From Escherichia phage vB_Eco_F27, in sequence record OP870146.1: a stretch of 64,000 nt of DNA; one strand, written 5' to 3'. Each line of letters starts with the position of its first letter. Within the stretch, counting starts at the first letter, position 1. Below, piece by piece: positions 7,672-46,172 of the stretch. The notes below the pieces were generated by a model. That model saw only the letters and a program-made list of their open reading frames with translations, was not told the DNA's origin and ran no database searches. The translations under genes and the position numbers were made by a program.

Positions 7672-7900
7672 TACACGCTTCAGCCATTTTAATAATAGAG
7701 CCGGGAGTATCGTTGTCCATTATATTAAAGCTAAATTCAATAGCCCAGTCGGTGCAGACATGAACTGCTTTAACTTCATTGCCTTCAACGCGTAATGGCT
7801 CAATCCAATACTTGATGGTGTTCTCGAATCCATCATCATCTTTAACGTCTATTTCAACTTCAAGCCCGAGCCCAGCATTGTTAAATTCATCTAAAGTCAT
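7643..7900 (-). CDS. hypothetical acidic protein (46.2 position)
   Basis: 85 aa ORF. Confidence 0.5.
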   Translation of the reverse strand: MTLDEFNNAGLGLEVEIDVKDDDGFENTIKYWIEPLRVEGNEVKAVHVCTDWAIEFSFNIMDNDTPGSIIKMAEACIEDAYNDED

Positions 7901-8916
7901 TGTGTTGCCTCAATATAAAGTTCGTTGGAATATTTGACCAGCGCTTCTCTGTCTTCGTCTGAGATATCTGGAATCGCGTCAATATATTCTTTAATGATAT
8001 CTTGAAGTGATTTAATCTCGATTTCCTGGTCGTCATCAGATTCAACACTGTTATCAACTTTAGAAACCATACGAAGAGAGTGAACTACTTTTTCAAGTTC
8101 AGATTCAAACTTAGTCAACTCTGAATCAATTTCTGATACTATAACACGTACGGCTAGATTAGTATAATCAGAATAATTAATTTTGCCTTTAAACGGATAA
8201 GTGATTCGTCGATGCCATGTTGTTTCATTAGGAATAAATTCCATACGTTCAACATCAGTGTCAAATACCCAGAATCCGCGTGGGTCGTTCTCATCGCCTG
8301 CAGTAAGGGTCCATGGTGTCCCAATATATTTGACGTTAGCAGCTTCAGAGATTGTGTGGAAGTGGCCGGACCAGACTTGTTTATAGGTCTTTAAGAAATC
8401 AGGTTCAAGCCCATGAGACTTCATTCCTTTATAGAAATAAAAGCCATTCAGTTCCCAGTGACCAACACAATACGCAGCAGAAGAAGTCTTGATGTGCTCT
8501 AATATTTCACCTGTATTTTCTTCACACATCCATGGAACGATATCAATCAGACATCCGTCAAAATCTACAGTAGTCGGATGCTCGTAAATAGTAAAGTTTT
8601 CAAATTGAGTTAACAATTCAGAAACAGTGTTAGGTGTTATTGTATTCTTAAACGCCATGTCATGGTTTCCTATCGTGACATGAACGTGAATGCCTGCTTT
8701 AGAAATCATATCAACGATTTCACGATTGAATTCCATTGTACGATGTGTTATTGCTTTACGGACGTCAAACCAATCACCGTACTGAATCCAAGTTTTAATC
8801 CCGTGTTTCTTAGAGTATTCAATTGCTTGATGAATACCATCACGTTGAATATCTTGAACCCATGGGTCGTCTTGTTTGACTCCGATATGGAAGTCGCCTA
8901 AGTGCAAAATTTTCAT
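7897..8916 (-). CDS. 47: recombination endonuclease subunit gp47 (Mre11/SbcD-like phosphoesterase)
   Basis: 339 aa; MKILHLGDFHIG, GDWFD, GNHD phosphoesterase motifs. Confidence 0.92.
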   Translation of the reverse strand: MKILHLGDFHIGVKQDDPWVQDIQRDGIHQAIEYSKKHGIKTWIQYGDWFDVRKAITHRTMEFNREIVDMISKAGIHVHVTIGNHDMAFKNTITPNTVSELLTQFENFTIYEHPTTVDFDGCLIDIVPWMCEENTGEILEHIKTSSAAYCVGHWELNGFYFYKGMKSHGLEPDFLKTYKQVWSGHFHTISEAANVKYIGTPWTLTAGDENDPRGFWVFDTDVERMEFIPNETTWHRRITYPFKGKINYSDYTNLAVRVIVSEIDSELTKFESELEKVVHSLRMVSKVDNSVESDDDQEIEIKSLQDIIKEYIDAIPDISDEDREALVKYSNELYIEATQ

Positions 8917-8961
8917 ATTATTTCCTCATTAGTTAATTCATTCTATCATCCGTTTATAAAG

Positions 8962-8987
8962 CAAAAAAAGGAACTCCGAAGAGTTCC
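8962..8987 (-). terminator. intrinsic terminator, GGAACTC-TTCG-GAGTTCC followed by U7
   Basis: Perfect 7-bp stem with UUCG loop and T-run on the minus strand, seen directly. Confidence 0.7.
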
Positions 8988-9199
8988 TATCCACATAGTA
9001 CACCATACAGAGGCTCATTTGAACTTTTAAATCGAATGGGCTTGTACGTAATAGTTCCTTCGGCTTTAGCTTTATCATAAGACTCTTTAAAACGTCTCAT
9101 TCTTTCTGCTTTGCCTTTACGGATTTTATCGAAATTTTCAGAAGTCGGGATGTTCGTCATGCATAAGCACCTCTCAGAAAATACCTAAACCGATTTCTC

Positions 9200-9421
9200 T
9201 CATTGTTTCCACCATTTCTTAACTTGAAATGAATCAACCCACACGAGTTGTTTTGGGTCTGCCTTTACAATAGGCGGACAAATTTCTGTAATAGAACCGT
9301 CATGATATTCCTTTTCAGAAATTTTAACACAAAGAGGACCTCCCAATTTAAGGGTGAACCCTGCGTTCAGCTTCAGACGTTTAAACTTTGTTTGAACTAG
9401 CGCCATTAATGATGTCCTCAA
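9200..9421 (-). CDS. hypothetical protein
   Basis: 73 aa ORF; start uncertain, overlaps the next ORF. Confidence 0.35.
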   Translation of the reverse strand: MRTSLMALVQTKFKRLKLNAGFTLKLGGPLCVKISEKEYHDGSITEICPPIVKADPKQLVWVDSFQVKKWWKQ

Positions 9422-9704
9422 TAGCCTGACGAGTAGTAACCCACTGGATTTTAATTAACTTGTCATTATATGGTTGTCGTAGAATATCCCGAGATTTCTT
9501 AATAGCATATTCGTAAGCTTCGAAGTTGTTTTGAATTGCTGCTTCTTGAGCATGTGCATAAAGACGGTTTAGTTCAAAACGATTCTTTTTAAGAATCTTT
9601 TCGGATTTTTTACGTGCTTCAGCTTCATTTTTCTTTTGGATTTCTTGTAGCATTTTAGCTACTGCATCTTCTGCTTCTTTATTTTCAATAATCTCGGTAG
9701 TCAT
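9381..9704 (-). CDS. hypothetical protein (Lys/Glu-rich)
   Basis: 107 aa ORF downstream of gene 55. Confidence 0.45.
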   Translation of the reverse strand: MTTEIIENKEAEDAVAKMLQEIQKKNEAEARKKSEKILKKNRFELNRLYAHAQEAAIQNNFEAYEYAIKKSRDILRQPYNDKLIKIQWVTTRQAIEDIINGASSNKV

Positions 9705-9705
9705 A

Positions 9706-9921
9706 TTATCTCATTAAATTAAAATAAAAACGTCCGTCCTCTTCAATACAGAACTCGTACTCAACTGGAGTTCCATTTATCGAAAATGACACGTCATGTG
9801 GGTTCAAAGGGTCGATGTCAAAATTAATTTTAAATTCTCGACCCAACAGTTTTACCAAATAAGGGATTGCTTCGTCAAAAGGTTCTTCTAAGTAGTTAGA
9901 GATGTCAATTGTCATCCTCAT
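9706..9921 (-). CDS. hypothetical protein
   Basis: ORF track 9706..9999 overlaps the gene 55 end; likely starts at an internal Met (MRMTIDIS...). Confidence 0.35.
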
Positions 9922-10480
9922 ATAAAAAATCCAAACTAGGCGAATCGCTAACAACTTCCTTCTTTTCAGCCCCAGGAGCTTTATAAGCGGATTCTTCATA
10001 ATGCGTCATTTTATCGTAGATGTCTTGAATAAACGTTTCATCTACCAACGCTACCATATCATCGTCATGACTGTCGTAGACATTATGAACGAAGTAACTA
10101 TATTTCTTTGCAACTTCCTTACGTTCTTTTTTGATACGTTGGACAAAAGCATTAAAACAAGCTCGAGTTATGTATGCATGTGGGTTATTGTACTTAGTTT
10201 CGTCGAAATTATGAAGTCCCTTAATAGAGGCTTCAATCCCATCTGCAATCATCTCCTGCTTCCAAGACTGGGTATATCCTGAAAAGTTGAAACGTTTGGA
10301 CAGGCCTTCGGCGATAAGCATAATTGCTAAACCGATGGTATCATTCTGACGAATAATTTTGTTTGGGTCTTTATTATTTAAGAGCTCCTTTTTCCATTCG
10401 ATTATAGCGGCGAGAAGCTCTTTATTATTCACATAGTTATTTTTAGGTTTTTGTTCAGTCATAAGTACCTCTTGGCTCAA
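9905..10480 (-). CDS. 55: late transcription sigma factor gp55
   Basis: 191 aa; ...[87 protein letters not shown]... near-identical to T4 gp55 as recalled. Confidence 0.92.
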
Positions 10481-10617
10481 TTCATAGGTCTATTATATCA
10501 TAATATTTAGAGACCTATCTTAAAGCACGAGATACTATCAAAGATACGTAACTTTTATAAAGTTGTCGACTTAAAATTCACCAAACTTTTCTTCGGTTAT
10601 AGTGATTCGAGATAGTT

Positions 10618-10845
10618 TCATTCTATTTCCTTTGCTGCAAATAAGGCAGCATCCAACGAATCAAATTGGTCAACGAAATCAATATTCAACGCATCGTCAA
10701 CCGTAGCATATAACCACCATTGTTTGAATTCGTATTCTAGAATAAATCCAGGACCTTCAATCTGAGGAAGACCTAGGCTATTTGTACCAACTTCGTAACC
10801 AGCTAGACGCAAGTCATTAATCAAAGTTTCTGTTAATACGCTCAT
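10618..10845 (-). CDS. hypothetical protein (55.x region)
   Basis: 75 aa ORF. Confidence 0.45.
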   Translation of the reverse strand: MSVLTETLINDLRLAGYEVGTNSLGLPQIEGPGFILEYEFKQWWLYATVDDALNIDFVDQFDSLDAALFAAKEIE

Positions 10846-13411: not shown

Positions 13412-13882
13412 TTAATCATGTTTCCACACCCCATCGGTATTTGACCAAAGTCGCTGATTATCTGATCCTCGCCACAGCTTTTTAGTCGGAAGATTTTTCT
13501 CATACTTCCCATCAATAATAACATCAACATATTTAAGCATTTCTAGTTGTTTAATATCTTCAAACTTATATCCTGTCCACAACCAAATGCTTTTATTGGG
13601 ATAAAGATTTTTTACTGTTTGAACAATGCAATGAATAACATCTCGGTTATCAGGATAGAGAGGGTCACCTCCGGTTATAGTTAATCCTTCTATATAATCA
13701 TTATTCAAACATTCAATTAATTGTTCTAGTGTTTCACCAGTGAATGGAACACCATTTCTAGCATTCCATGTTGATTTATTATAACACCCTTCGCATTTAT
13801 GCAAACAACCCGTAACGAAAAGAACGACCCTGCATCCAGGGCCATTCACAAAATCGCAAGGATAAAATCTATCATAATTCAT
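13412..13882 (-). CDS. nrdG: anaerobic ribonucleotide reductase activating protein (radical SAM)
   Basis: 156 aa; CxxxCxxC-like cluster GCLHKCEGCYN; immediately downstream of nrdD. Confidence 0.9.
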   Translation of the reverse strand: MNYDRFYPCDFVNGPGCRVVLFVTGCLHKCEGCYNKSTWNARNGVPFTGETLEQLIECLNNDYIEGLTITGGDPLYPDNRDVIHCIVQTVKNLYPNKSIWLWTGYKFEDIKQLEMLKYVDVIIDGKYEKNLPTKKLWRGSDNQRLWSNTDGVWKHD

Positions 13883-15160
13883 TGGTGTTTAACCCTATGC
13901 ATGATTTCTTTATTTTTACCGAGATTAAATCCGCGTTCGTTCGGATTTCCCAAATAACCACATGTTCTTCTTATTGTGTTCATCTTTTTAGGATCAGTTT
14001 CTCCACAAATAGAACAAACAAATCCGTTTTCAGTAGGAGTCATTTCATGGGTACTTCCACATGTAAAACATTTATCTACTGGCATATTAACACCAAAATA
14101 ATCTAAATGTTGTGCAGCATAATCCCATACGGCCTCAAGGCCTTTCAAGTTATTTTTCATATCAGGAAGTTCAACATAAGAAATGTGACCACCTGTCGCA
14201 ATGAAATGATATGGCGCTTCACGAGAAATCTTTTCAAACGGAGTAATATTTTCTTCTACTGAAACATGGAAACTGTTAGTGTACCAACCTTTATCGGTAA
14301 CATCTTTTACGCTTCCATATTTTTCTGTATCAAGTTTACAGAAGCGGTAACAAAGGTTTTCAGCAGGAGTAGAATACAAACTAAAAGCAAATCCAGTTCT
14401 TTCGGACCACTGTTTAAGATGAGCATTCATTTTAGTTAAAATTTCTTGCCCAATATCACGACCGACAAGAATATTCAATTCGTGAATACCAATGTATCCT
14501 AAAGACACTGAACTTCTACCGTTTTTAAATAACTCAATTATGTCGTCATCAGGTTTAAGACGAACCCCGAATGCACCTTCTTGGTAAAGAATAGGAGCAA
14601 CAGTCGCTTTAACACCCTTTAAAGAACTAATTCTACACATCAAGGCTTCAAAACACAGATCCATTCGTTCATTAAACAATTCGATAAATTTCTGTTCATT
14701 GAACTGTGTTCCAATATAAGAATCTAATGCGATACGAGGAAGATTCAGTGTTACAACACCAAGATTATTACGTCCATCAAGAATTTCATTACCGGTTGAA
14801 TCTTTCCACACACTCAAAAAACTGCGGCAACCCATTGGAGAAACAGGAATAGATGAGCCGGTGATAGCTTTATTGTTCTTAGCTGAAATAATATCAGGAT
14901 ACATTCTTTTGCTTGCACATTCTAACGCAAGTTGTTTAATATCATAGTTCGGATCATCTTTATAAAGATTAACACCTTCTTCAACAAACATAACAAGTTT
15001 AGGAAAAATAGGAGTTATTCCATCACGACCAAGGCCTTTAATGCGGTTTTTAAGAATTGCCTTCTGAATCATTCGTTCAGTCCAGTCAGTTCCCGTACCA
15101 AATGTAATTGTTACAAAAGGCGTTTGACCGTTTGAACTGAAAAGTGTATTTACTTCATCA
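13879..15160 (-). CDS. nrdD: anaerobic ribonucleoside-triphosphate reductase NrdD, exon 2 (5' boundary approximate)
   Basis: Class III RNR C-terminal region with Cys-rich C-terminus. 3' splice site placed by length inference about 25 nt below the I-TevII stop; not determined exactly. Confidence 0.75.
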
Positions 15161-16197
15161 TTATATTCAGCATGAGTCGCAAATTCATGCCCGTTTATAT
15201 GAAACAACAAAATTTGGATAGTCCATAGATATGCAACGTTCTTTTATAGTGCTAGGATGAAAATTTAGCGCTTTAGCTGCTTCTATATAAGACGTATACT
15301 TAATACCGTCAACAACCACATATTCAGGAACTTTATGAATAGTAGTCTTAATACTCAAAACAAGAGGATGAGTTTCGACTTCACTTTCAGTGCAATTTAA
15401 ATATTCCGCTGCTTTTTTAAAACTTCTAAAAGTTTTATTTTTAAGCTTTATCGATACTTGTTTTTTACTTTTTCGACTATTGATATTATTTTGCACATGT
15501 TCCTTAGATCTTCCGTTTTTAGCATAATATTCAGCTACAGAAGATTTTATATTGTTTTTATGAGATTCGGATAACACTTTACCCTTATGAGCATCTCTTA
15601 ATTTTTGAATATGTTCTTCAGTATCCGGATGCTTATAAAACTTTTTACCGCCTATGGATTTATTTAAACATTTTTTGCTATAAAAATATTTACGTATGAC
15701 CTCTTCTTCATGTTTTAATGCATCTTTATAACTATCAAATGTTTTTAAAATTATCCATTTAGTAGGTGTATCAGTTTTTAAGCGTTCATTTATATACTTA
15801 GATGACGTTGTGTAAGTTTTCCAGTTTGTGGGCTTGTTTTTAATTGTTCTAAATTTTTTATAACCGATATAAATGTCGCCATTAGAAAACTTAACTAAGT
15901 ATGTAAATGCGTCTTTATCTTTTATTTTAGTACAACGTCTTTTATCCATTTCATTGTTTCACCTCGTATTCATAAGATAATCTTATTTATACAAGATGAC
16001 TGCTGCATGTCGCCATGCAGATTAGACTATATCTTCATCTTTCGATGCCGGTCGTTTCGAATAGCATTAGCTTCTATTCTACACCGCTACATTCATCACG
16101 GTTAGTCGTTAGGCATTTAGTTCAAAAGAACATTTAGCACGGGATTGTCTACTAGAGAGGTTCCCCGTTTAGACCGGTTTTACATGAGCCTGAATTA
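15161..16197 (-). mobile_element. group I self-splicing intron in nrdD (boundaries approximate)
   Basis: Exon 1 frame hits a stop at 16195-16197, followed by AAACGGGGAACCTCTCTAGTAGACAATCCCGTGCTAAAT, a sequence I recall from T4 group I introns, then an embedded endonuclease ORF. Confidence 0.8.
15185..15949 (-). CDS. intron-encoded homing endonuclease I-TevII (GIY-YIG type)
   Basis: 254 aa; ...FTYLVKFSNGDIYIGYKKF... and basic C-terminal DNA-binding region; lies inside the nrdD intron as in T4. Confidence 0.85.
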   Translation of the reverse strand: MDKRRCTKIKDKDAFTYLVKFSNGDIYIGYKKFRTIKNKPTNWKTYTTSSKYINERLKTDTPTKWIILKTFDSYKDALKHEEEVIRKYFYSKKCLNKSIGGKKFYKHPDTEEHIQKLRDAHKGKVLSESHKNNIKSSVAEYYAKNGRSKEHVQNNINSRKSKKQVSIKLKNKTFRSFKKAAEYLNCTESEVETHPLVLSIKTTIHKVPEYVVVDGIKYTSYIEAAKALNFHPSTIKERCISMDYPNFVVSYKRA

Positions 16198-16740
16198 AAT
16201 TAACTCATACGCCTGGAACGCGTCATAGACATCTTTTTCTGTTTTAGATTGAGCATAATTCAACGCATCAGCGATTTGCCATTTTTCTGCATCTTCAACA
16301 TGTTTAGCGTATGTGCGTTTAACATAAGGAGAAAGTACTTTATCGACATTCGCAAATGTAGTTCCGCCATACTGGTGTGAAGCAACTTGTGCAGTAATTT
16401 GTGCCATAATTGCAGTAGCAACGCCAATAGATTTAGGCGTTTCAATTTGAGCATTGCCTAATTTAAATCCATTCTCAAGCATCCCCTTTAAATCGACCAA
16501 ACAGCAATTAGTAAACGGAAGAGCAGGAGAATAATCAATATCATGCATGTGAATGATTCCGCTTTCATGCGCATTCATAATAAAAGACGGGACCATATTT
16601 TTGGCAATGTGCTTAGACACAATACCAGCCATAAGGTCCCGTTGAGTTGGAAAAACACGAGAATCTTTATTAGCATTCTCGTTCAAAAGATCTTTATTAG
16701 TTTTATGAATTAATCCTTCAATTTCTTTTTCAATTTTCAT
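16198..16740 (-). CDS. nrdD: NrdD exon 1
   Basis: 181 codons MKIEKEIEGLIHKTNKDLLNENANKDSRVFPTQRDLMAGIVSKH... ending at the intron. Confidence 0.8.
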
Positions 16741-17210
16741 TTTAAACTCTTTCTAAGCTGCTTTTTGAATGAAGCTATTAATTGTGTTTTAGTATCAGAT
16801 TCATTATATTCAAATCCTCTTTGAAGCATCTCGGCCATCATTTCCTCTTTACCTAGTCTTGAGAACTCTTTAGTTTTGTCTGGAACAAAATTAGGATGGA
16901 TATTATTAGCAGAATAATCTTGTTTCAAATAAGCAAGAAGAGCTTCAAGCCATTCGAGGTAGTCGACATCACGACCTTTAAGACCAGAACGGTTGAACTT
17001 ATGCTTCATTTGTCCTTCTGCTGCGTTGCACAGAGAACAGAGTAATCCACGAACTCTACCGGCTTTTGGCCCGTTTAATTCATGGTCGTGGTCAAGATGG
17101 TTACCTTGAACATCAGGGTCTAATTCACGGTGGCAAATAGGACACTTACCGTTCTGTGCATCATAAAATTTTTGTTTTTCTTCTTTATATTTTGCGCCTG
17201 ATAATAACAT
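16737..17210 (-). CDS. 49: endonuclease VII (Holliday junction resolvase)
   Basis: 157 aa; CPICHRELD...HLDHDHELNGPKAGRVRGLLCSLCN zinc/HNH-like core. Confidence 0.9.
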   Translation of the reverse strand: MLLSGAKYKEEKQKFYDAQNGKCPICHRELDPDVQGNHLDHDHELNGPKAGRVRGLLCSLCNAAEGQMKHKFNRSGLKGRDVDYLEWLEALLAYLKQDYSANNIHPNFVPDKTKEFSRLGKEEMMAEMLQRGFEYNESDTKTQLIASFKKQLRKSLK

Positions 17211-17245
17211 GATAAACCCTTACCTTAAATAGATAAGGGTATTTA

Positions 17246-17671
17246 TTAACTTAAACGTCTTTCTAAATATTCAATGTATTCTGCGGCTGCTTGCATCAGG
17301 TTACCTTCATAGCCGTCGTTATTTTCTTGTCCGGCTAATTTAGCTAATGCATAAGAAATTCGTTCACCTTCGAATTCACCAAGTTTACTACCTAGCACAT
17401 CCGCAATATCAGCCGAATCAATTTCTTCGAGTTCATCTATTGAATGTGATTCCCAGAAGCACCAAAGAGAAGTATCACGGTCATAGATGCAAAGTTTCTC
17501 ACCAGTGTTCAACATCACTTCAATAATGCCATGGTCGCCATAACCATCTTCGGTAGTAGTACCAATTACCTTGATGATTGTATCTTTCTTTAATTCAGGA
17601 AACTTGACTTGTAGTTCTTCATCTTCTTTAACAATCTTGAACCATTTACCGCGAGTTTCAGAAATATTCAT
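17246..17671 (-). CDS. hypothetical acidic protein (T4 pin/49.x interval)
   Basis: 141 aa ORF; identity with pin not verifiable here. Confidence 0.45.
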   Translation of the reverse strand: MNISETRGKWFKIVKEDEELQVKFPELKKDTIIKVIGTTTEDGYGDHGIIEVMLNTGEKLCIYDRDTSLWCFWESHSIDELEEIDSADIADVLGSKLGEFEGERISYALAKLAGQENNDGYEGNLMQAAAEYIEYLERRLS

Positions 17672-17672
17672 A

Positions 17673-17870
17673 TCAATATTCTCTATAAAAGTTATGATGA
17701 GAACGTTTAGCTTTGCGAAGCTGACGTTTAGTAGGACGAACTGTAAATGGTTGTCCGGAGAAAAAATTTGGTTCAGTTTTAATCAACACATACCAATCGT
17801 GTTCGCCACTTTTTAATAAACGGTATAACAATTTAACTTGCATAATAATCTCTTCCCATTTCCAAATCAA
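17673..17870 (-). CDS. hypothetical protein
   Basis: 65 aa ORF. Confidence 0.35.
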   Translation of the reverse strand: MIWKWEEIIMQVKLLYRLLKSGEHDWYVLIKTEPNFFSGQPFTVRPTKRQLRKAKRSHHNFYREY

Positions 17871-17971
17871 TTATATCGTTTACTGTAGGTTCATTATAAC
17901 ACGTTTCTTCGTCGTTGTAAACTGTTTCGACGTCTGGCTCGACAGTTTCCCATCGAGCCGAATACCATGGT

Positions 17972-18328
17972 TTAGCCCCGGAGTTTATTGAGCTCTTCAT
18001 AATCAATCCAGGATTCTAGCCCTGACGGCAGGTCACATTCAATGTTCCACAGAAGCTCTTCAATGGCTTGCAGGCGATTATATTCTTCAACGGTAATGGT
18101 AACCATTGGTGCAACCGGTTCTGCCTTTTTAACCATCATATCGTTCATCAGGACGTAAAGGTCATCACGAACGTCAGTGTCGTTCCAACCCCATGATTTG
18201 GCTTCGTAAGCTAATGATGAAGTGAGCACATTTAAAACTTCAATAATAGTTGGAGCATCAGGACCAAGTTCATTGGCACAAACTTCGTATACATCTTGGA
18301 AATCTTTAAGATTTAATGAATATGTCAT
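17972..18328 (-). CDS. hypothetical protein
   Basis: 118 aa ORF. Confidence 0.45.
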   Translation of the reverse strand: MTYSLNLKDFQDVYEVCANELGPDAPTIIEVLNVLTSSLAYEAKSWGWNDTDVRDDLYVLMNDMMVKKAEPVAPMVTITVEEYNRLQAIEELLWNIECDLPSGLESWIDYEELNKLRG

Positions 18329-18588
18329 TTAAAATATTCTCGTAGTTGGTCAAAGCCACCGATCGAAGTTCCATCAGGAGCAAACACCTGAGGCATCGTC
18401 AATCCAACATGTGTTTCACGTCCAAGCTTAGCCAGAAGCTCAGCAATTTTTTCTTCATCGAATACACCTTTTTCTGGCATAACATTAATGAATTCGAACG
18501 GCTGTTTCTTAACAGTCAGCAATCGTTTCGCATTATCACAATAAATGCATTTATGAATAGTAGAGTCATACCCGTACACTTTAAACAT
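18325..18588 (-). CDS. nrdC: thioredoxin/glutaredoxin NrdC
   Basis: MFKVYGYDSTIHKCIYCDNAKRLLTVKKQPFEFINVMPEKGVF...; start set to the ATG at 18588. Confidence 0.9.
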   Translation of the reverse strand: MFKVYGYDSTIHKCIYCDNAKRLLTVKKQPFEFINVMPEKGVFDEEKIAELLAKLGRETHVGLTMPQVFAPDGTSIGGFDQLREYFK

Positions 18589-18994
18589 TATTTTTCCTTT
18601 CATCGATTAAATATGCAATGCCAAATACAATACATGTAATAAAACCTGTGATACAGATAGAGACCAACAACACTGTACCAAAGAACCAAATCAAGTTATC
18701 TTTAGTAGTTTGTTTGATATCCATCTCACGAATTTCTATAGCTATCGTATCACCTTTATTCAGAAGCGTATAAAATGATGGAGATACACGCCTGTCAAAA
18801 ACTCGTCCTTGCTCATCTTTATAGACTGCAATAAATTCTAATTTAGAATATTTTCCTGTAGATTGGCCTGAGATTAATTCCACTACCTCCACAGGAATTA
18901 CTTTAGTTTCCATGTAAGTATTCTGACTGTTCCAAATGAATGGAATAATGGCAAAAACTAAAGCTGCGATAAAACAACGAAGACTATATCTCAT
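18581..18994 (-). CDS. hypothetical membrane protein (nrdC.1 position)
   Basis: 137 aa with N- and C-terminal hydrophobic segments. Confidence 0.5.
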   Translation of the reverse strand: MRYSLRCFIAALVFAIIPFIWNSQNTYMETKVIPVEVVELISGQSTGKYSKLEFIAVYKDEQGRVFDRRVSPSFYTLLNKGDTIAIEIREMDIKQTTKDNLIWFFGTVLLVSICITGFITCIVFGIAYLIDERKNNV

Positions 18995-19299
18995 TATAAT
19001 GTTCTCTCAAATTTGTGGAAGCATTTACGGCATTTCAATTTCAAGTTATCAGTGGTCCAGTTAACCAGTTGGACTTGGATAGTTCCACATTCTGGGCATG
19101 GATGTTTTGCTGCCGATTTGGCAGCATTTTCACGTCGTTCAACCATTTTCATTATTTCGTTCCATGCCGGAGGAACGAACTCTTCTTCACCGTGGATTTT
19201 ATCTCGCTGAACAAATTCAATCTTTGAACTATCGCCAATAAACTTAACCAAGCGGTGATTAGTGTTCATATCAATATCCTCTAAAAGACGTAGTTTCAT
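18994..19299 (-). CDS. hypothetical protein with CxxC...CxxC zinc-ribbon-like motif
   Basis: 101 aa; CPECG...CRKC. Confidence 0.5.
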   Translation of the reverse strand: MKLRLLEDIDMNTNHRLVKFIGDSSKIEFVQRDKIHGEEEFVPPAWNEIMKMVERRENAAKSAAKHPCPECGTIQVQLVNWTTDNLKLKCRKCFHKFERTL

Positions 19300-20249
19300 T
19301 ATAATACCTCAATGGCATTTCGTAAACCATCCGCTTTTGCATTCAGAGCTTTTAATGATTTAGTTTGTTCTGCAATTTGGGCTTCGACTTCTTTCAGACG
19401 AGATTTGAGATATTCGCGTTCTTCAGCCATGATATCGACCTTTTCTGCTTTAGGTTCTTTAATAAGCTTAGGTTTATACGTATTAGGGTTCTTCAGCTTA
19501 ATTCGGGTACGAGAACTGAATAACATTGAACCGTTATCTTCGGTTTCGTCGAACATTTCAACAACATCCATAGTCTCTAACAATGTAATAAGTTTATAAG
19601 ACAACGAACGAATAGTTTTGTTGTGCTTATTAATTTCTTCGGCTTTCATGGTACCGAGATTACGTGAGTAATAATAAGGAACCTGGATATCAATTGATAA
19701 TGATGCGTTACCATTACCGGTTGGTTTGAATACTGCAGTAACCCAATCTTTAACATGAACTTTATTTGTACGACCATCACCGCCTGTGAATAATTTACGA
19801 GAATGTTTAAAAAGCATATTCACTTGTTTATTGAATTCACAAGCAAATTTATCAGCAAATTTAGTTTCAGGAATGGTAGTTAACCAATCAGCCAAATGAG
19901 TCTTTTTAACATCGTTAATAATAGTGAATTCAACCAAATCGGTTTTAGACGTCACAGATTTAATAAAACTCGGCTTCATAAAGTTTTTAATGTTATCGCG
20001 AGCTACAGTAGAAGATAATAAACGAGAACGTTTGAACCATTGAAGCAACGTCCCTAACGAATGAGAATACGCATTTTGAGTATCTTTACAGATATGATTT
20101 TCTTGGCCTATGTATGTACCAAAATCGCGAAGAATACCACTTACCACATCTCGGTGTGGAACATCAAATCCTAGTGCACCAGAAGCGCGCTGAGCATGAA
20201 CGTTAGCGATAAGACCTGCAAAATAATCAATGTAATGTGAACGTGTCAT
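19299..20249 (-). CDS. hypothetical protein with C-terminal coiled coil
   Basis: 316 aa ORF. Confidence 0.6.
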   Translation of the reverse strand: MTRSHYIDYFAGLIANVHAQRASGALGFDVPHRDVVSGILRDFGTYIGQENHICKDTQNAYSHSLGTLLQWFKRSRLLSSTVARDNIKNFMKPSFIKSVTSKTDLVEFTIINDVKKTHLADWLTTIPETKFADKFACEFNKQVNMLFKHSRKLFTGGDGRTNKVHVKDWVTAVFKPTGNGNASLSIDIQVPYYYSRNLGTMKAEEINKHNKTIRSLSYKLITLLETMDVVEMFDETEDNGSMLFSSRTRIKLKNPNTYKPKLIKEPKAEKVDIMAEEREYLKSRLKEVEAQIAEQTKSLKALNAKADGLRNAIEVL

Positions 20250-20306
20250 AATATTTTCCTCTCGTTAAGATAGAAAGATTATACTCCAACCATCCTTGGT
20301 TGTACA

Positions 20307-21302
20307 TCATTCCTTAAGAAGTTTTACTACTTGAATAAGATTAGCTCGTTCTGTTTTATTTTTACCGTTTAAGCCTGCTAATCGTGAGATTTCATCGTCA
20401 GTCTGTTGAATAGTTACATTAAGTTCGTTAATCAAAGCTTCAAAGTATTTGATTTGCTCAGCATGTTTTGATTCAAATTTCTGAACCGGAATAACGTCTT
20501 GATTCAGTTCATCAATAAGGTCTTTAAGAGCATCTTCTTGGTTGATATCATATTCAACTTCTTTTATTTCTTCAACGAGCTCGTCTTTATATCTAACGTC
20601 TTTTAGTCCTGGAGCTGGTCCTAAAATCTCTTCTTTAAGAGTACAAACATATCCAATACGATATCCAGTGCCGTCTCGCTTGATATCAACTTCGTCGATA
20701 AATCCACAATGTTTAAGACCAGAGCCGATTAGGTTAAAATATCCTTGACGTCGTCCTTCAAACGTTACGCGAACTACTAAGACAGTTTTACCTGCAACCT
20801 TTTGAAGCTCACATTTATAAAAGTCAGTTGAACCTGAATAACGTGGATGAGTTTTAAAGTTCATCTGACGATCTAGGCCCATTTGTAAACGTGCTGATAC
20901 GGCCAGAAAACGTGTTTGGTTCTCGTTAAGATGAGCAACAATCTGTTTCAAAGGCATTTTACCATGTTCACGACCGAACAAATCAGTACGTCCTAAATTA
21001 CGCAGGATATTGTTAGAGTTAATCATCGACAGAACGTTAAGTTTATTCAGCGCGCTGAAGATTCCATCAGCCATTGATTTTCCATAACCTTTACACGCTT
21101 TAATAAGTGCTCGCGGCAGATTAGTATAGATTTCAGACGGCATATGAAAATCAAATTTACTAACCAGTAATTGATGAACTTGGATAGAAATTTGTTCATA
21201 ATTAAGTGCTCTGCGATCATTATGGTCTTTAAACCACACTTTAATCTGTGAAGCACATAAACCATTAATTTCATGTTTTACCGCATCAGATGTAATGCTC
21301 AT
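20307..21302 (-). CDS. hypothetical protein with C-terminal coiled coil
   Basis: 331 aa ORF. Confidence 0.6.
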   Translation of the reverse strand: MSITSDAVKHEINGLCASQIKVWFKDHNDRRALNYEQISIQVHQLLVSKFDFHMPSEIYTNLPRALIKACKGYGKSMADGIFSALNKLNVLSMINSNNILRNLGRTDLFGREHGKMPLKQIVAHLNENQTRFLAVSARLQMGLDRQMNFKTHPRYSGSTDFYKCELQKVAGKTVLVVRVTFEGRRQGYFNLIGSGLKHCGFIDEVDIKRDGTGYRIGYVCTLKEEILGPAPGLKDVRYKDELVEEIKEVEYDINQEDALKDLIDELNQDVIPVQKFESKHAEQIKYFEALINELNVTIQQTDDEISRLAGLNGKNKTERANLIQVVKLLKE

Positions 21303-39234: not shown

Positions 39235-39775
39235 GGATTAAATTGTTAGTGAAATTAGGACTAACAACCATAGTTTCATAAAGCGCATCAATAGCACTTA
39301 AAGCATCAACTCTTTTAAGCAAAGGCTTGCCTTCATACATAGTTTCAGAATCGATGATTAACGTAAAGTAATATTTTTTATTATCGACTAGAACTTCCGT
39401 ATCGATATAAAACATATTAGACCTCAGAAGCTTATCTCTAAAACCATAATAATCTTCAGAGCGTTCGCTGATATATTCCCATTCAGTGTTTAAACAACAA
39501 ACAGACCATGTAGGAGCAACGAAATCGGTGAATCTAATATCATGGTCTGCAACTAGTTTAGCAATAGCTCCGATATCATGAATCATAATACCTGGGGCTA
39601 ATAAAGATTTTCTGCTATGGCTAGCCGTTTTCTCAGTAGTCTCATAAGAAGACGACCAGTACCATTTACGTCCAGTTGCAACATATCGTAATGAATCAAC
39701 TAAAGATGTAGGTGGATTTACCTTATCTCGGAACTCTTCGAACATTGAGTCAATATCATTATTTTGGTTTCGCAT
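39173..39775 (-). CDS. hypothetical protein
   Basis: ATG at 39775 (MRNQNNDIDS...) preceded by AAGGAG. Confidence 0.5.
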   Translation of the reverse strand: MRNQNNDIDSMFEEFRDKVNPPTSLVDSLRYVATGRKWYWSSSYETTEKTASHSRKSLLAPGIMIHDIGAIAKLVADHDIRFTDFVAPTWSVCCLNTEWEYISERSEDYYGFRDKLLRSNMFYIDTEVLVDNKKYYFTLIIDSETMYEGKPLLKRVDALSAIDALYETMVVSPNFTNNLILEQFIMECREYVKANPVHAN

Positions 39776-42777: not shown

Positions 42778-42854
<77 letters not shown>

Positions 42855-45437: not shown

Positions 45438-46172
45438 TTACCTTAAGATTGTTTCAATTTTAGAATAAAGCTCTTCTAAAGAGCCGTCGTTTGTAATAAC
45501 TAAATCGCCTTCTTCAATAGGCAACCCAGCTTCTGTAATATGTTTATCAGTGGATTCCGTACCAGAGCGAACCACATGAATAACTGTAGCACCCATCGCT
45601 CTAGCGGTTTCCATTTCATGGACTTGGCGTGTATCGGTTACAACATAGTAATCGAAATCACTTCCAATATAATCCATATAGTTTAATGCAAAAAGCTTAA
45701 CCCAATACATACGGTCAAATAAATTAACGACAACATCCGTACCGAGGGCTTGCATAAGACGGCGGATTGACCATGTGTCGTTGATATTATTTATAGCTTC
45801 ACGCAGGGCTTCATATGGTTTAATATCTAGATATGAATACCCACCTTCTAATGATGATAATACTTTAACATTATTAATTGGTAAATATTGACTTTGTAAA
45901 TAAATTAGCGCTTCTTCCAATAATTCAATAACATCCAACTTATTGATATTTAATGGTGTTTCACGGTCATATCCGACACCTTCAAAGTATTCGTATTTCA
46001 ACTCTGTGAATACATCAGGATCTTCAGCATGTTTACGTCCCCAGGCTATTGCTAGAGCGTCTTTAATCGGATATGCCAATTGGTATTTTACGGATTTAAA
46101 GTTTGAATTGATGTAATCAGCAGTAGTGTCTTTACCACTACGTTTGATGCCGCTTAAAAAGATTAGCTCCAT
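45438..46172 (-). CDS. 1: deoxynucleoside monophosphate kinase gp1
   Basis: 244 aa; IFLSGIKRSGKDTTADYI P-loop, ...DRMYWVKLFALNY..., ...HITEAGLPIEEGDLVITNDGSLEEL. Confidence 0.9.
   Translation of the reverse strand: MELIFLSGIKRSGKDTTADYINSNFKSVKYQLAYPIKDALAIAWGRKHAEDPDVFTELKYEYFEGVGYDRETPLNINKLDVIELLEEALIYLQSQYLPINNVKVLSSLEGGYSYLDIKPYEALREAINNINDTWSIRRLMQALGTDVVVNLFDRMYWVKLFALNYMDYIGSDFDYYVVTDTRQVHEMETARAMGATVIHVVRSGTESTDKHITEAGLPIEEGDLVITNDGSLEELYSKIETILR

Follow-up and report, generated by a model that had tools for sequence, protein, structure and literature searches.

The stretch of DNA that we analysed, 64,000 nucleotides from Escherichia phage vB_Eco_F27 (OP870146.1), is referred to here as the window. 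In it, genes 47 and 55 are separated by a short interval that, according to the ORF list, extends from the start of gene 47 (8916) to the stop of gene 55 (9905), that is, over 8917-9904 (988 bp). All the coding capacity of the interval lies on the minus strand, where four small genes are followed by a hairpin terminator and a MotA-type middle promoter. With the two bordering genes, the features are the following:

7897-8916, minus strand: gene 47, SbcD-like recombination nuclease subunit, 339 aa; it bounds the interval on the left.
8940-8963, minus strand: predicted MotA-type middle promoter, with the MotA box TGCTTTA at 8963-8957, an 11-nt spacer and the -10 element TAGAAT at 8945-8940.
8962-8988, minus strand: predicted intrinsic terminator from a terminator scan, with an 8-bp stem, a UUCG loop and a U7 tail.
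8987-9160, minus strand: a-gt.2 ortholog, 57 aa, DUF5486 (Pfam PF17588, E 4.5e-28).
9200-9406, minus strand: a-gt.3 ortholog, 68 aa from the ATG at 9406, PHROG 1648.
9381-9704, minus strand: a-gt.4 ortholog, 107 aa, DUF2654 (Pfam PF10849, E 1e-27).
9706-9921, minus strand: a-gt.5 ortholog, 71 aa, DUF5491 (Pfam PF17595, E 5.8e-13).
9905-10462, minus strand: gene 55, late sigma factor, 185 aa from an ATG; right border of the interval.

The gene 47 ORF gives a Pfam Metallophos match and has 76% amino acid identity to T4 gp47, the gene 55 ORF has 89% amino acid identity to T4 gp55, and the records of relatives show ORFs annotated as 47 and 55. A sequence-only reading of this DNA had claimed that no gene of the size of an alpha-glucosyltransferase lies between these two genes, and that the interval is shorter than 1 kb and holds small ORFs plus a strong terminator. 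Both claims hold: on neither strand of 8917-9904 is there an ORF longer than 107 aa, and the 988 bp contain four ORFs and a terminator with a predicted folding energy of -13.2 kcal/mol. Regarding the ORF sizes it gave (58, 73, 107 and 97 aa), 107 was correct, 58 becomes 57 aa, and the other two depend on the start codon. The maximal ORF of a-gt.3 (9200-9421) has 73 aa from a TTG and annotated orthologs use the ATG at 9406 (68 aa), while that of a-gt.5 (9706-9999) has 97 aa, running into gene 55, and its orthologs begin at the ATG at 9921 or 9915 (71 or 69 aa).

By tblastn, the a-gt.2 ortholog is 95% identical to a-gt.2 of RB69 and 76% identical to that of T4. The corresponding values for RB69 and T4 are 98.5% and 71% for a-gt.3, 100% and 58% for a-gt.4, and 100% (over 69 aa) and 47% for a-gt.5. 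In comparisons with T4, RB14 and VR26, the dN/dS values of the small genes were between 0.13 and 0.38 (0.17-0.25 for a-gt.2, which reached 0.49 against the more distant PKO111; 0.13-0.21 for a-gt.3; 0.19-0.38 for a-gt.4), and those of genes 47 and 55 were 0.05-0.10. Judged by these substitution patterns, the four small ORFs are real genes under purifying selection, because dN/dS stays at 0.13-0.38. PHROGs assigns all four to families without a known function, and our literature search on a-gt.2 to a-gt.5 and DUF2654 found no function, only comparative genomics. Genes 55, a-gt.5, a-gt.4 and a-gt.3 overlap or nearly abut, with 17 nt shared by the start of a-gt.5 and the 3' end of gene 55, and 26 nt shared by the 3' end of a-gt.4 and the start of a-gt.3; a 39-nt gap then precedes a-gt.2.

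Downstream of a-gt.2, the minus strand carries the hairpin AGGAACTC-TTCG-GAGTTCCT at 8988-8969, followed by seven T; as RNA, it reads AGGAACTC-UUCG-GAGUUCCU plus seven U. The stem overlaps the stop codon of a-gt.2. The fold has a z-score of -3.2, and 0 of 200 shuffled sequences folded as well. Hence, the element has the features of a rho-independent terminator: a G+C-rich hairpin, a direct U-run, and a position on the coding strand after a stop codon. Hairpins are found at the same position in five other phages, where the stems differ, yet the complementarity is perfect.

The terminator is directly followed by TTTTGCTTTA + 11 nt + TAGAAT at 8966-8940 of the minus strand, with the gene 47 ATG 23 nt further downstream. 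The consensus of middle promoters is (a/t)3TGCTTtA at 12+/-1 bp from the -10 element (PMC2988021), and the box, the spacing, the -10 element, the intergenic location and the position upstream of a middle gene all agree, at the level of sequence, with a MotA-dependent promoter. The pattern TGCTTTA-N11-13-TANNNT has eight matches in the window, with 0.89 expected. The promoter module is also kept in RB69, VR26, RB14, T4 and PKO111. In T4, PmobB/Pa-gt.1 (38682) and P47 (36576) are experimentally mapped middle promoters (PMC2988021), and the two T4 copies of the module coincide with them. In all six phages compared, we found the same composite motif, made of a G+C-rich hairpin, TGCTTTA, about 11-12 nt and a TAnAAT -10 element; the stems across phages are GGAACTC/GAGTTCC, GGAAGC/GCTTCC, GGAGC/GCTCC, AGGGC/GCCCT and GGGCC/GGCCC. 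From the sequence and from these T4 orthologs, we infer promoter and terminator activity in the phage. Genes 55, a-gt.5, a-gt.4, a-gt.3 and a-gt.2 would form, in this order, one tightly packed transcription unit ending at the intrinsic terminator at 8962-8988, and the MotA-type promoter directly after it would restart transcription into 47, 46.2, 46.1 and 46. This succession of unit, terminator and MotA-dependent promoter into 47 and 46 is the most likely way for the interval to work, as predicted from its layout.

To place the locus among known phages, we compared the window with public records. By megablast, the region and both ends of the window belong to the genus Mosigvirus (RB69-like Tevenvirinae), with 97-99% identity; no record matched identically. 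The window starts inside gene 43 and continues through 62, 44, 45, 46, 47, 55 and nrdG/nrdD, followed by the nrdC-tk-vs-e region, two tRNAs, gene 1, and baseplate and fibritin genes. Over 8700-10100 of the window, the nucleotide identity to RB69 is 98.2% and the gene layout is alike. RB69p066-RB69p071 of RB69 (NC_004928) correspond to 47, a-gt.2 to a-gt.5 and 55, with order, spacing, hairpin and promoter module identical, and the four small proteins are 95-100% identical. The locus differs from that of RB69 by points only, such as a run of seven T after the hairpin in the window and of six in RB69, or three residues in a-gt.2. Elsewhere, in contrast to RB69, the window has an nrdD intron and is without nrdC.5 and most of ORF072c. 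A scan of the whole window with Rfam at the gathering threshold listed the two tRNAs and missed a group I intron, which was found by a local scan.

Around 150 phage records hold this short locus at 95-99% identity, and every relative whose locus we examined has the same layout without a-gt. The order of the genes is that of the genus, and the nucleotide identity to genus members is 98-99%, where at least 95% was set for a Mosigvirus 47-55 locus. According to these alignments, the window represents part of the genome of an RB69-like T-even phage from the genus Mosigvirus. The locus without a-gt is the standard Mosigvirus form and is already known: the lack of alpha- and beta-glucosyltransferases in RB69-like phages has been in the literature since 2018 (PMC6024577), and a-gt is missing from this locus in the RB69 record as well.

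The comparison with T4 defines what is absent. The T4 record has the order 47, 47.1, a-gt (1203 nt, 400 aa), mobB, a-gt.2, a-gt.3, a-gt.4, a-gt.5, 55, with a 47-55 interval of 3152 bp, in agreement with the sequence-only reading, which had placed a gene of about 400 codons there; RB14 has the same order without mobB. Both share with the window the flanking genes 47 and 55, the a-gt.2 to a-gt.5 block in the same order and orientation (47-76% amino acid identity), and the hairpin and MotA-box promoter module after a-gt.2, although the T4 hairpin at that place is without a U-run. They differ from it by 1.4-2.2 kb of additional DNA, comprising a-gt, a second hairpin/promoter module (P47), 47.1 and, only in T4, the homing endonuclease gene mobB. 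In pairwise blastn, the homology of RB14 gene 47 ends at window position 8918 (RB14 segment up to 1429), and that of the RB14 a-gt start and its upstream region begins at 8911 (RB14 segment from 2801). This gives one more feature:

8911-8918, no strand: empty site, occupied in T4-type genomes by about 1.37 kb of additional DNA.

The breakpoints coincide with the start codon of gene 47, and therefore the T4-type insert of about 1.37 kb sits exactly at this codon. Its content is the a-gt ORF, the second hairpin/promoter module and 47.1, so that, as far as the alignments tell, exactly the a-gt/47.1 segment is missing in the window relative to T4 and RB14.

Other genera show both states of the site. 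Gaprivervirus VR26 has 47, a-gt.2 to a-gt.5 and 55 and no a-gt, and Tegunavirus TG1 has no a-gt at this locus either, with its gene 47 split by a GIY-YIG endonuclease. Jiaodavirus PKO111 carries an a-gt, 66% identical to that of T4, at the same site. The absence of a-gt at this site is thus common in the subfamily and no peculiarity of this phage, because VR26 and TG1 are also without a-gt here. A tblastn search with T4 a-gt gave 657 matching records, 10 of them with less than 60% identity, and among the matches listed all were from Tequatrovirus-type or Klebsiella (Jiaodavirus-type) phages.

In RB14 and PKO111, two copies of the hairpin and promoter flank a-gt, and the empty site has one. A second copy occurs after a-gt in those phages only that have this gene; its MotA box is degenerate in PKO111. 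The extra segment between the promoter and gene 47 in T4-type (Tequatrovirus) phages and Jiaodavirus consists of alpha-gt followed by a second module, with 47.1 as part of it in T4 and RB14, and the window, RB69, VR26 and TG1 have the unoccupied site. We tentatively propose, as a possibility that we do not favor, that the T4-type alpha-gt is a movable cassette between two hairpin + MotA-box modules. PeSL cassettes (Arbiol et al. 2010, PMC2839356; Comeau et al. 2014, PMC4122927) likewise have a repeated hairpin-promoter motif bracketing a variable gene. However, PeSLs were defined with early promoters, and the promoters here are of the MotA-dependent middle type, the likeness being one of sequence layout. 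If true, the proposal would extend PeSL-type modular shuffling, so far a matter of early promoters, to middle promoters, and it would explain why a modification gene is found at the same site in Tequatrovirus and Jiaodavirus and not in Mosigvirus, Gaprivervirus and Tegunavirus. The PeSL papers make no mention of the 47-55 locus (PMC2839356, PMC4122927). The one mildly new angle is an a-gt bracketed by two modules, with a single copy at the empty site.

The DNA chemistry of Mosigvirus has been described in the literature. Thomas et al. (2018) reported arabinose in RB69 DNA and proposed ORF003c as the transferase (PMC6024577), and the link between gp3 and alpha-gt was made by custom HMMs and fold prediction only (Thomas et al. 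2018, PMC6024577). Lee et al. (2026) found RB69 DNA with mono- and di-arabinosylated 5-hydroxycytosine (PMC13326640). In RB69, 5-hydroxy-dCMP is made by the ThyA homolog gp48, and gp46:47 and gp3 were assigned as first and second arabinosyltransferases by fold and synteny; the 5-hydroxy-dCMP synthase is the only experimentally confirmed member of the pathway (PMC13326640). The Durham Collection paper describes Mosigvirus NP with the same two nucleosides and the same two transferase loci (PMC13390438). The virion-DNA chemistry (5-ara-dC and 5-ara-ara-dC) comes from RB69 and NP only (PMC13326640, PMC13390438).

We then looked at where these genes lie in relatives. RB69 and JK45 encode two transferases, the first in the region from gene 43 to uvsX and the second between rIIA and 39. 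The region from 43 to uvsX encodes an arabinose-5-phosphate isomerase, an NTP-transferase/kinase fusion, a small phosphatase-like protein, a U32 protein, a thymidylate-synthase homolog, the 299-aa transferase and a thymidylate kinase. In the RB69 record, a sequencing error splits the gene of the 299-aa transferase. The second transferase, gp3, has 366 aa and lies between rIIA.1 and gene 39. In JK45 and in all eight contigs with a gp44 identical to that of the window (these contigs are 97-98% identical to it), the cluster adjoins gene 43 and contains the SIS isomerase, the 561-aa NTP-transferase fusion, the U32 protein, the ThyA homolog and the 299-aa transferase. It begins 41 bp after the gene 43 stop codon in the eight contigs, beyond the left end of the window, and occupies the position of gene 42 and b-gt in T4. 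With at least 95% identity, the 299-aa transferase is present in 153 records and gp3 in 155, and the record counts of both match that of the focal locus (150, at 95-99%).

Inside the window, one component of the pathway is found:

45438-46172, minus strand: gene 1, dNMP kinase, 95% amino acid identity to RB69p159.

Table 1 of the published account (PMC13326640) gives RB69p159 as the pathway's dNMP kinase. With this degree of identity, gene 1 is of the RB69 type, and of the components listed for the RB69 modified-cytosine pathway it alone lies in the window. The window belongs to the genus in which the RB69-type pathway was described, shares gene 1 with it and has close relatives that carry the cluster beyond its left edge; apart from gene 1, no pathway gene lies inside it.

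Taking these data together, we consider it very probable that the window is a Mosigvirus segment with the genus-typical 47-55 locus without a-gt, from a lineage with arabinosyl-5-hydroxycytosine whose modification enzymes are encoded elsewhere. The absence of a-gt is explained because the phage is a Mosigvirus. The lineage does not glucosylate hydroxymethylcytosine (hmC); according to the published chemistry, its cytosine is replaced by mono- and di-arabinosylated 5-hydroxycytosine, in contrast to the glucosyl-hmC of T4. Downstream of gene 43, shortly past the left end of the window, one would find the 5-hydroxy-dCMP synthase together with the proposed arabinose-nucleotide genes and the first arabinosyltransferase; the second transferase would lie between rIIA and gene 39. 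For this genome, the arabinosylation genes are predicted from relatives with 97-99% identity and from the literature. The sequence-only reading had expected either a different hmC modification repertoire or a transferase elsewhere, and had suggested searching the complete genome for such enzymes. As relatives and the literature indicate, it was right in direction on both counts, with two transferase loci in relatives outside the window. It erred on the base, as in Mosigvirus this is 5-hydroxycytosine, made via a thymidylate-synthase homolog, and therefore no 'different hmC repertoire' is involved; besides, the transferases are not recognisable alpha-gt homologs.

One could argue that an a-gt, b-gt or ba-gt ortholog has been relocated outside the 64-kb window and that the phage glucosylates hmC like T4. 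Around 100 kb of the genome lie outside the window; moreover, T-even genomes are mosaic, and the best matches vary along the window. However, BlastP found no homolog of T4 a-gt, T4 b-gt or T2 ba-gt in RB69 (PMC6024577), the alpha-gt tblastn matches are, among those listed, all from Tequatrovirus-type or Klebsiella phages, and nine of nine relatives examined carry the 5-hydroxy-dCMP synthase and the arabinose cluster at the 42/b-gt position of T4. Relocation is therefore very unlikely in our view.

The window itself was searched by tblastn with T4 a-gt, T4 b-gt, RB14 a-gt, RB14 ba-gt and RB69 gp3, gp45-48, gp50-53 and gp55 as queries. Over its whole length, no homolog of these glucosyltransferases and RB69 modification proteins was found, with a best E of 0.016. 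This value belongs to a match of T4 a-gt at 39509-39688 (27.5% over 69 aa), which lies inside the e.5 ortholog and which we attribute to chance. Neither an alpha-gt domain (PF11440, AGT) nor an ORF of about 400 aa was found between 47 and a-gt.2; as a positive control, T4 a-gt scored 862 bits against PF11440. For b-gt (PF09198) and the T2-type ba-gt (TAGT, PF20691), no tblastn match in the window had an E below 1; the canonical b-gt locus, between 42 and uvsX, is outside the window and is the place of the arabinose cluster in relatives.

It is also conceivable that the cytosine modification of this isolate differs from that of RB69, given that the modification loci lie outside the window. We give this little credence, less than to a movable alpha-gt cassette, and continue to prefer the arabinosyl-5-hydroxycytosine of the genus.

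A cryptic glycosyltransferase in the window could have taken the place of alpha-gt, either as one of the four a-gt.x genes or as one of three ORFs of 316, 331 and 318 aa. The three are of transferase size and gave no functional annotation with Pfam, PHROGs or PDB sequences, and the Mosigvirus transferases are known to escape Pfam. We detected no glycosyltransferase signal in ten large ORFs without annotation searched against Pfam, in seven ORFs without annotation and the four small genes searched against PHROGs, or in the three transferase-sized ORFs searched against PDB sequences. RB69 gp3 and the 299-aa transferase have no Pfam match either, and BLASTP gave no similarity between RB69 gp3 and T4 alpha-gt. 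These negatives are thus weak alone, because real Mosigvirus transferases also go without a Pfam match. Other observations speak against such an enzyme. Proteins of 57-107 aa, as encoded by a-gt.2 to a-gt.5, are far too small for a GT-B fold, and T4 has these genes alongside alpha-gt. The ORFs of 316 and 331 aa are the nrdC.3 and nrdC.6 orthologs, marked as shared with T4 in the RB69 annotation. Homologs of the 318-aa ORF, the RB69ORF134c ortholog, are spread over many phages that are not related to each other; one of these is Citrobacter phage Moon, in which glucosyltransferase homologs are also present. Such a wide distribution speaks against a function tied to this modification. The model of this protein made with AlphaFold2 from the single sequence had a mean pLDDT of 36 and was unusable. 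Finally, the published search for RB69 arabinosyltransferases named only gp3 and gp46:47 (PMC13326640). A cryptic transferase in the window is thus highly improbable.

Equally hard to credit is that this isolate alone recently lost the gene by deletion, or that its assembly is at fault, for although the site lies between repeated regulatory modules that could in principle promote deletion, a point with nothing specific to it, the same junction occurs in RB69 (98% identical across it) and in VR26, of another genus, about 150 public records have the short locus at 95-99%, all examined relatives are without a-gt, and 47.1 is absent too, with no pseudogene remnants.

With a genus-typical locus and enzymes encoded elsewhere as the preferred explanation, the finding has little significance beyond correct annotation, given that the arabinosyl-5-hydroxycytosine chemistry and its gene clusters were published between 2018 and 2026. 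In practice, a phage with this locus may be expected to resist or succumb to restriction and other defences like RB69 and not like T4. Besides, since Mosigvirus transferases escape Pfam-type scans, a result of 'no glycosyltransferase found' is no evidence of unmodified DNA. Some database records label the gp3 homolog 'DNA alpha-glucosyltransferase', a misleading name.

In the window, nrdD carries an inserted element of about 1038 bp that separates residue 178 from residue 179 and combines a group I intron core with an ORF for a GIY-YIG endonuclease. The features are, by window position:

13882-16740, minus strand: nrdD, split between codons for the two residues named
15166-16203, minus strand: inserted element, with intron core and endonuclease ORF
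16003-16234: group I intron core, matching Rfam RF00028 at 73 bits (E 2.7e-18)
15185-15949: GIY-YIG endonuclease ORF of 254 aa, with 56% identity to I-TevII

Colinearity with the T4 nrdD intron extends over the entire region, at 84% nucleotide identity across 2958 nt. In RB69, by contrast, nrdD is uninterrupted, and hence the presence of the intron is variable inside the genus Mosigvirus.

When the entire 64-kb window was scanned with Rfam at the gathering threshold, only two tRNAs were obtained and the group I intron was not listed, whereas a search restricted to 1.4 kb gave it 73 bits, against a gathering score of 50. Default speed filters can thus drop a genuine match from a 64-kb query. 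The tRNA genes are:

42781-42854, minus strand: tRNA gene, Rfam, 71 bits
42958-43029, minus strand: tRNA gene, Rfam, 62 bits

RB69 also has two tRNA genes, annotated as tRNA-Arg(UCU) and tRNA-Met(CAU), while T4 has eight.

At 17210-21302, the window has no ortholog of RB69 nrdC.5 (none occurs elsewhere in the window either), and the nrdC.3 ortholog (a 316-aa ORF at 19299-20249) shows an identity of only 91%, compared with 98-99% for its neighbours. Such a pattern points to a mosaic or recombinant stretch. Another difference lies in the interval that separates gene 55 from the 55.1 ortholog, where RB69, RB14 and most relatives carry an 89-aa ORF (RB69ORF072c, DUF7200). The 10463-10621 gap of the window holds a remnant of this gene:

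10541-10621: RB69ORF072c remnant, about 27 codons, 70% identity

The 89-aa ORF is likewise uncalled at this site in two related contigs (L012 and L019).

Regarding the surroundings of gene 47 in other phages, the start codon of 47.1 (46 aa) falls inside the -10 element (TATAATG) of the mapped middle promoter P47 in RB14 (L003 1560-1600) and in its T4 equivalent. Transcripts initiated at P47 are therefore unable to encode 47.1, which could be translated only from transcripts reading through out of a-gt. In the Tegunavirus TG1, a Yersinia phage (KP202158; L009 38-1841), a free-standing GIY-YIG homing endonuclease gene divides gene 47 into two ORFs. The 46/47 to 55 neighbourhood is a target of mobile endonucleases, TG1 providing another example besides mobB of T4.

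Finally, some database labels call for care. Homologs of the RB69 protein gp3, the putative second arabinosyltransferase, are labelled 'DNA alpha-glucosyltransferase' in HX01 (NC_018855) and in the Acinetobacter phages Berthold and Abraxas; no sequence similarity to T4 alpha-gt can be detected in the homologs so labelled, and the label could falsely imply glucosylation. Shigella phage JK45 (MK962757), named Tequatrovirus jaykay in the NCBI taxonomy, ranks among the best matches to the Mosigvirus window. Its genus assignment looks inconsistent with its RB69-like gene content: a ThyA homolog occupies the gene 42 position, and the arabinose cluster and a homolog of gp3 are present as well.
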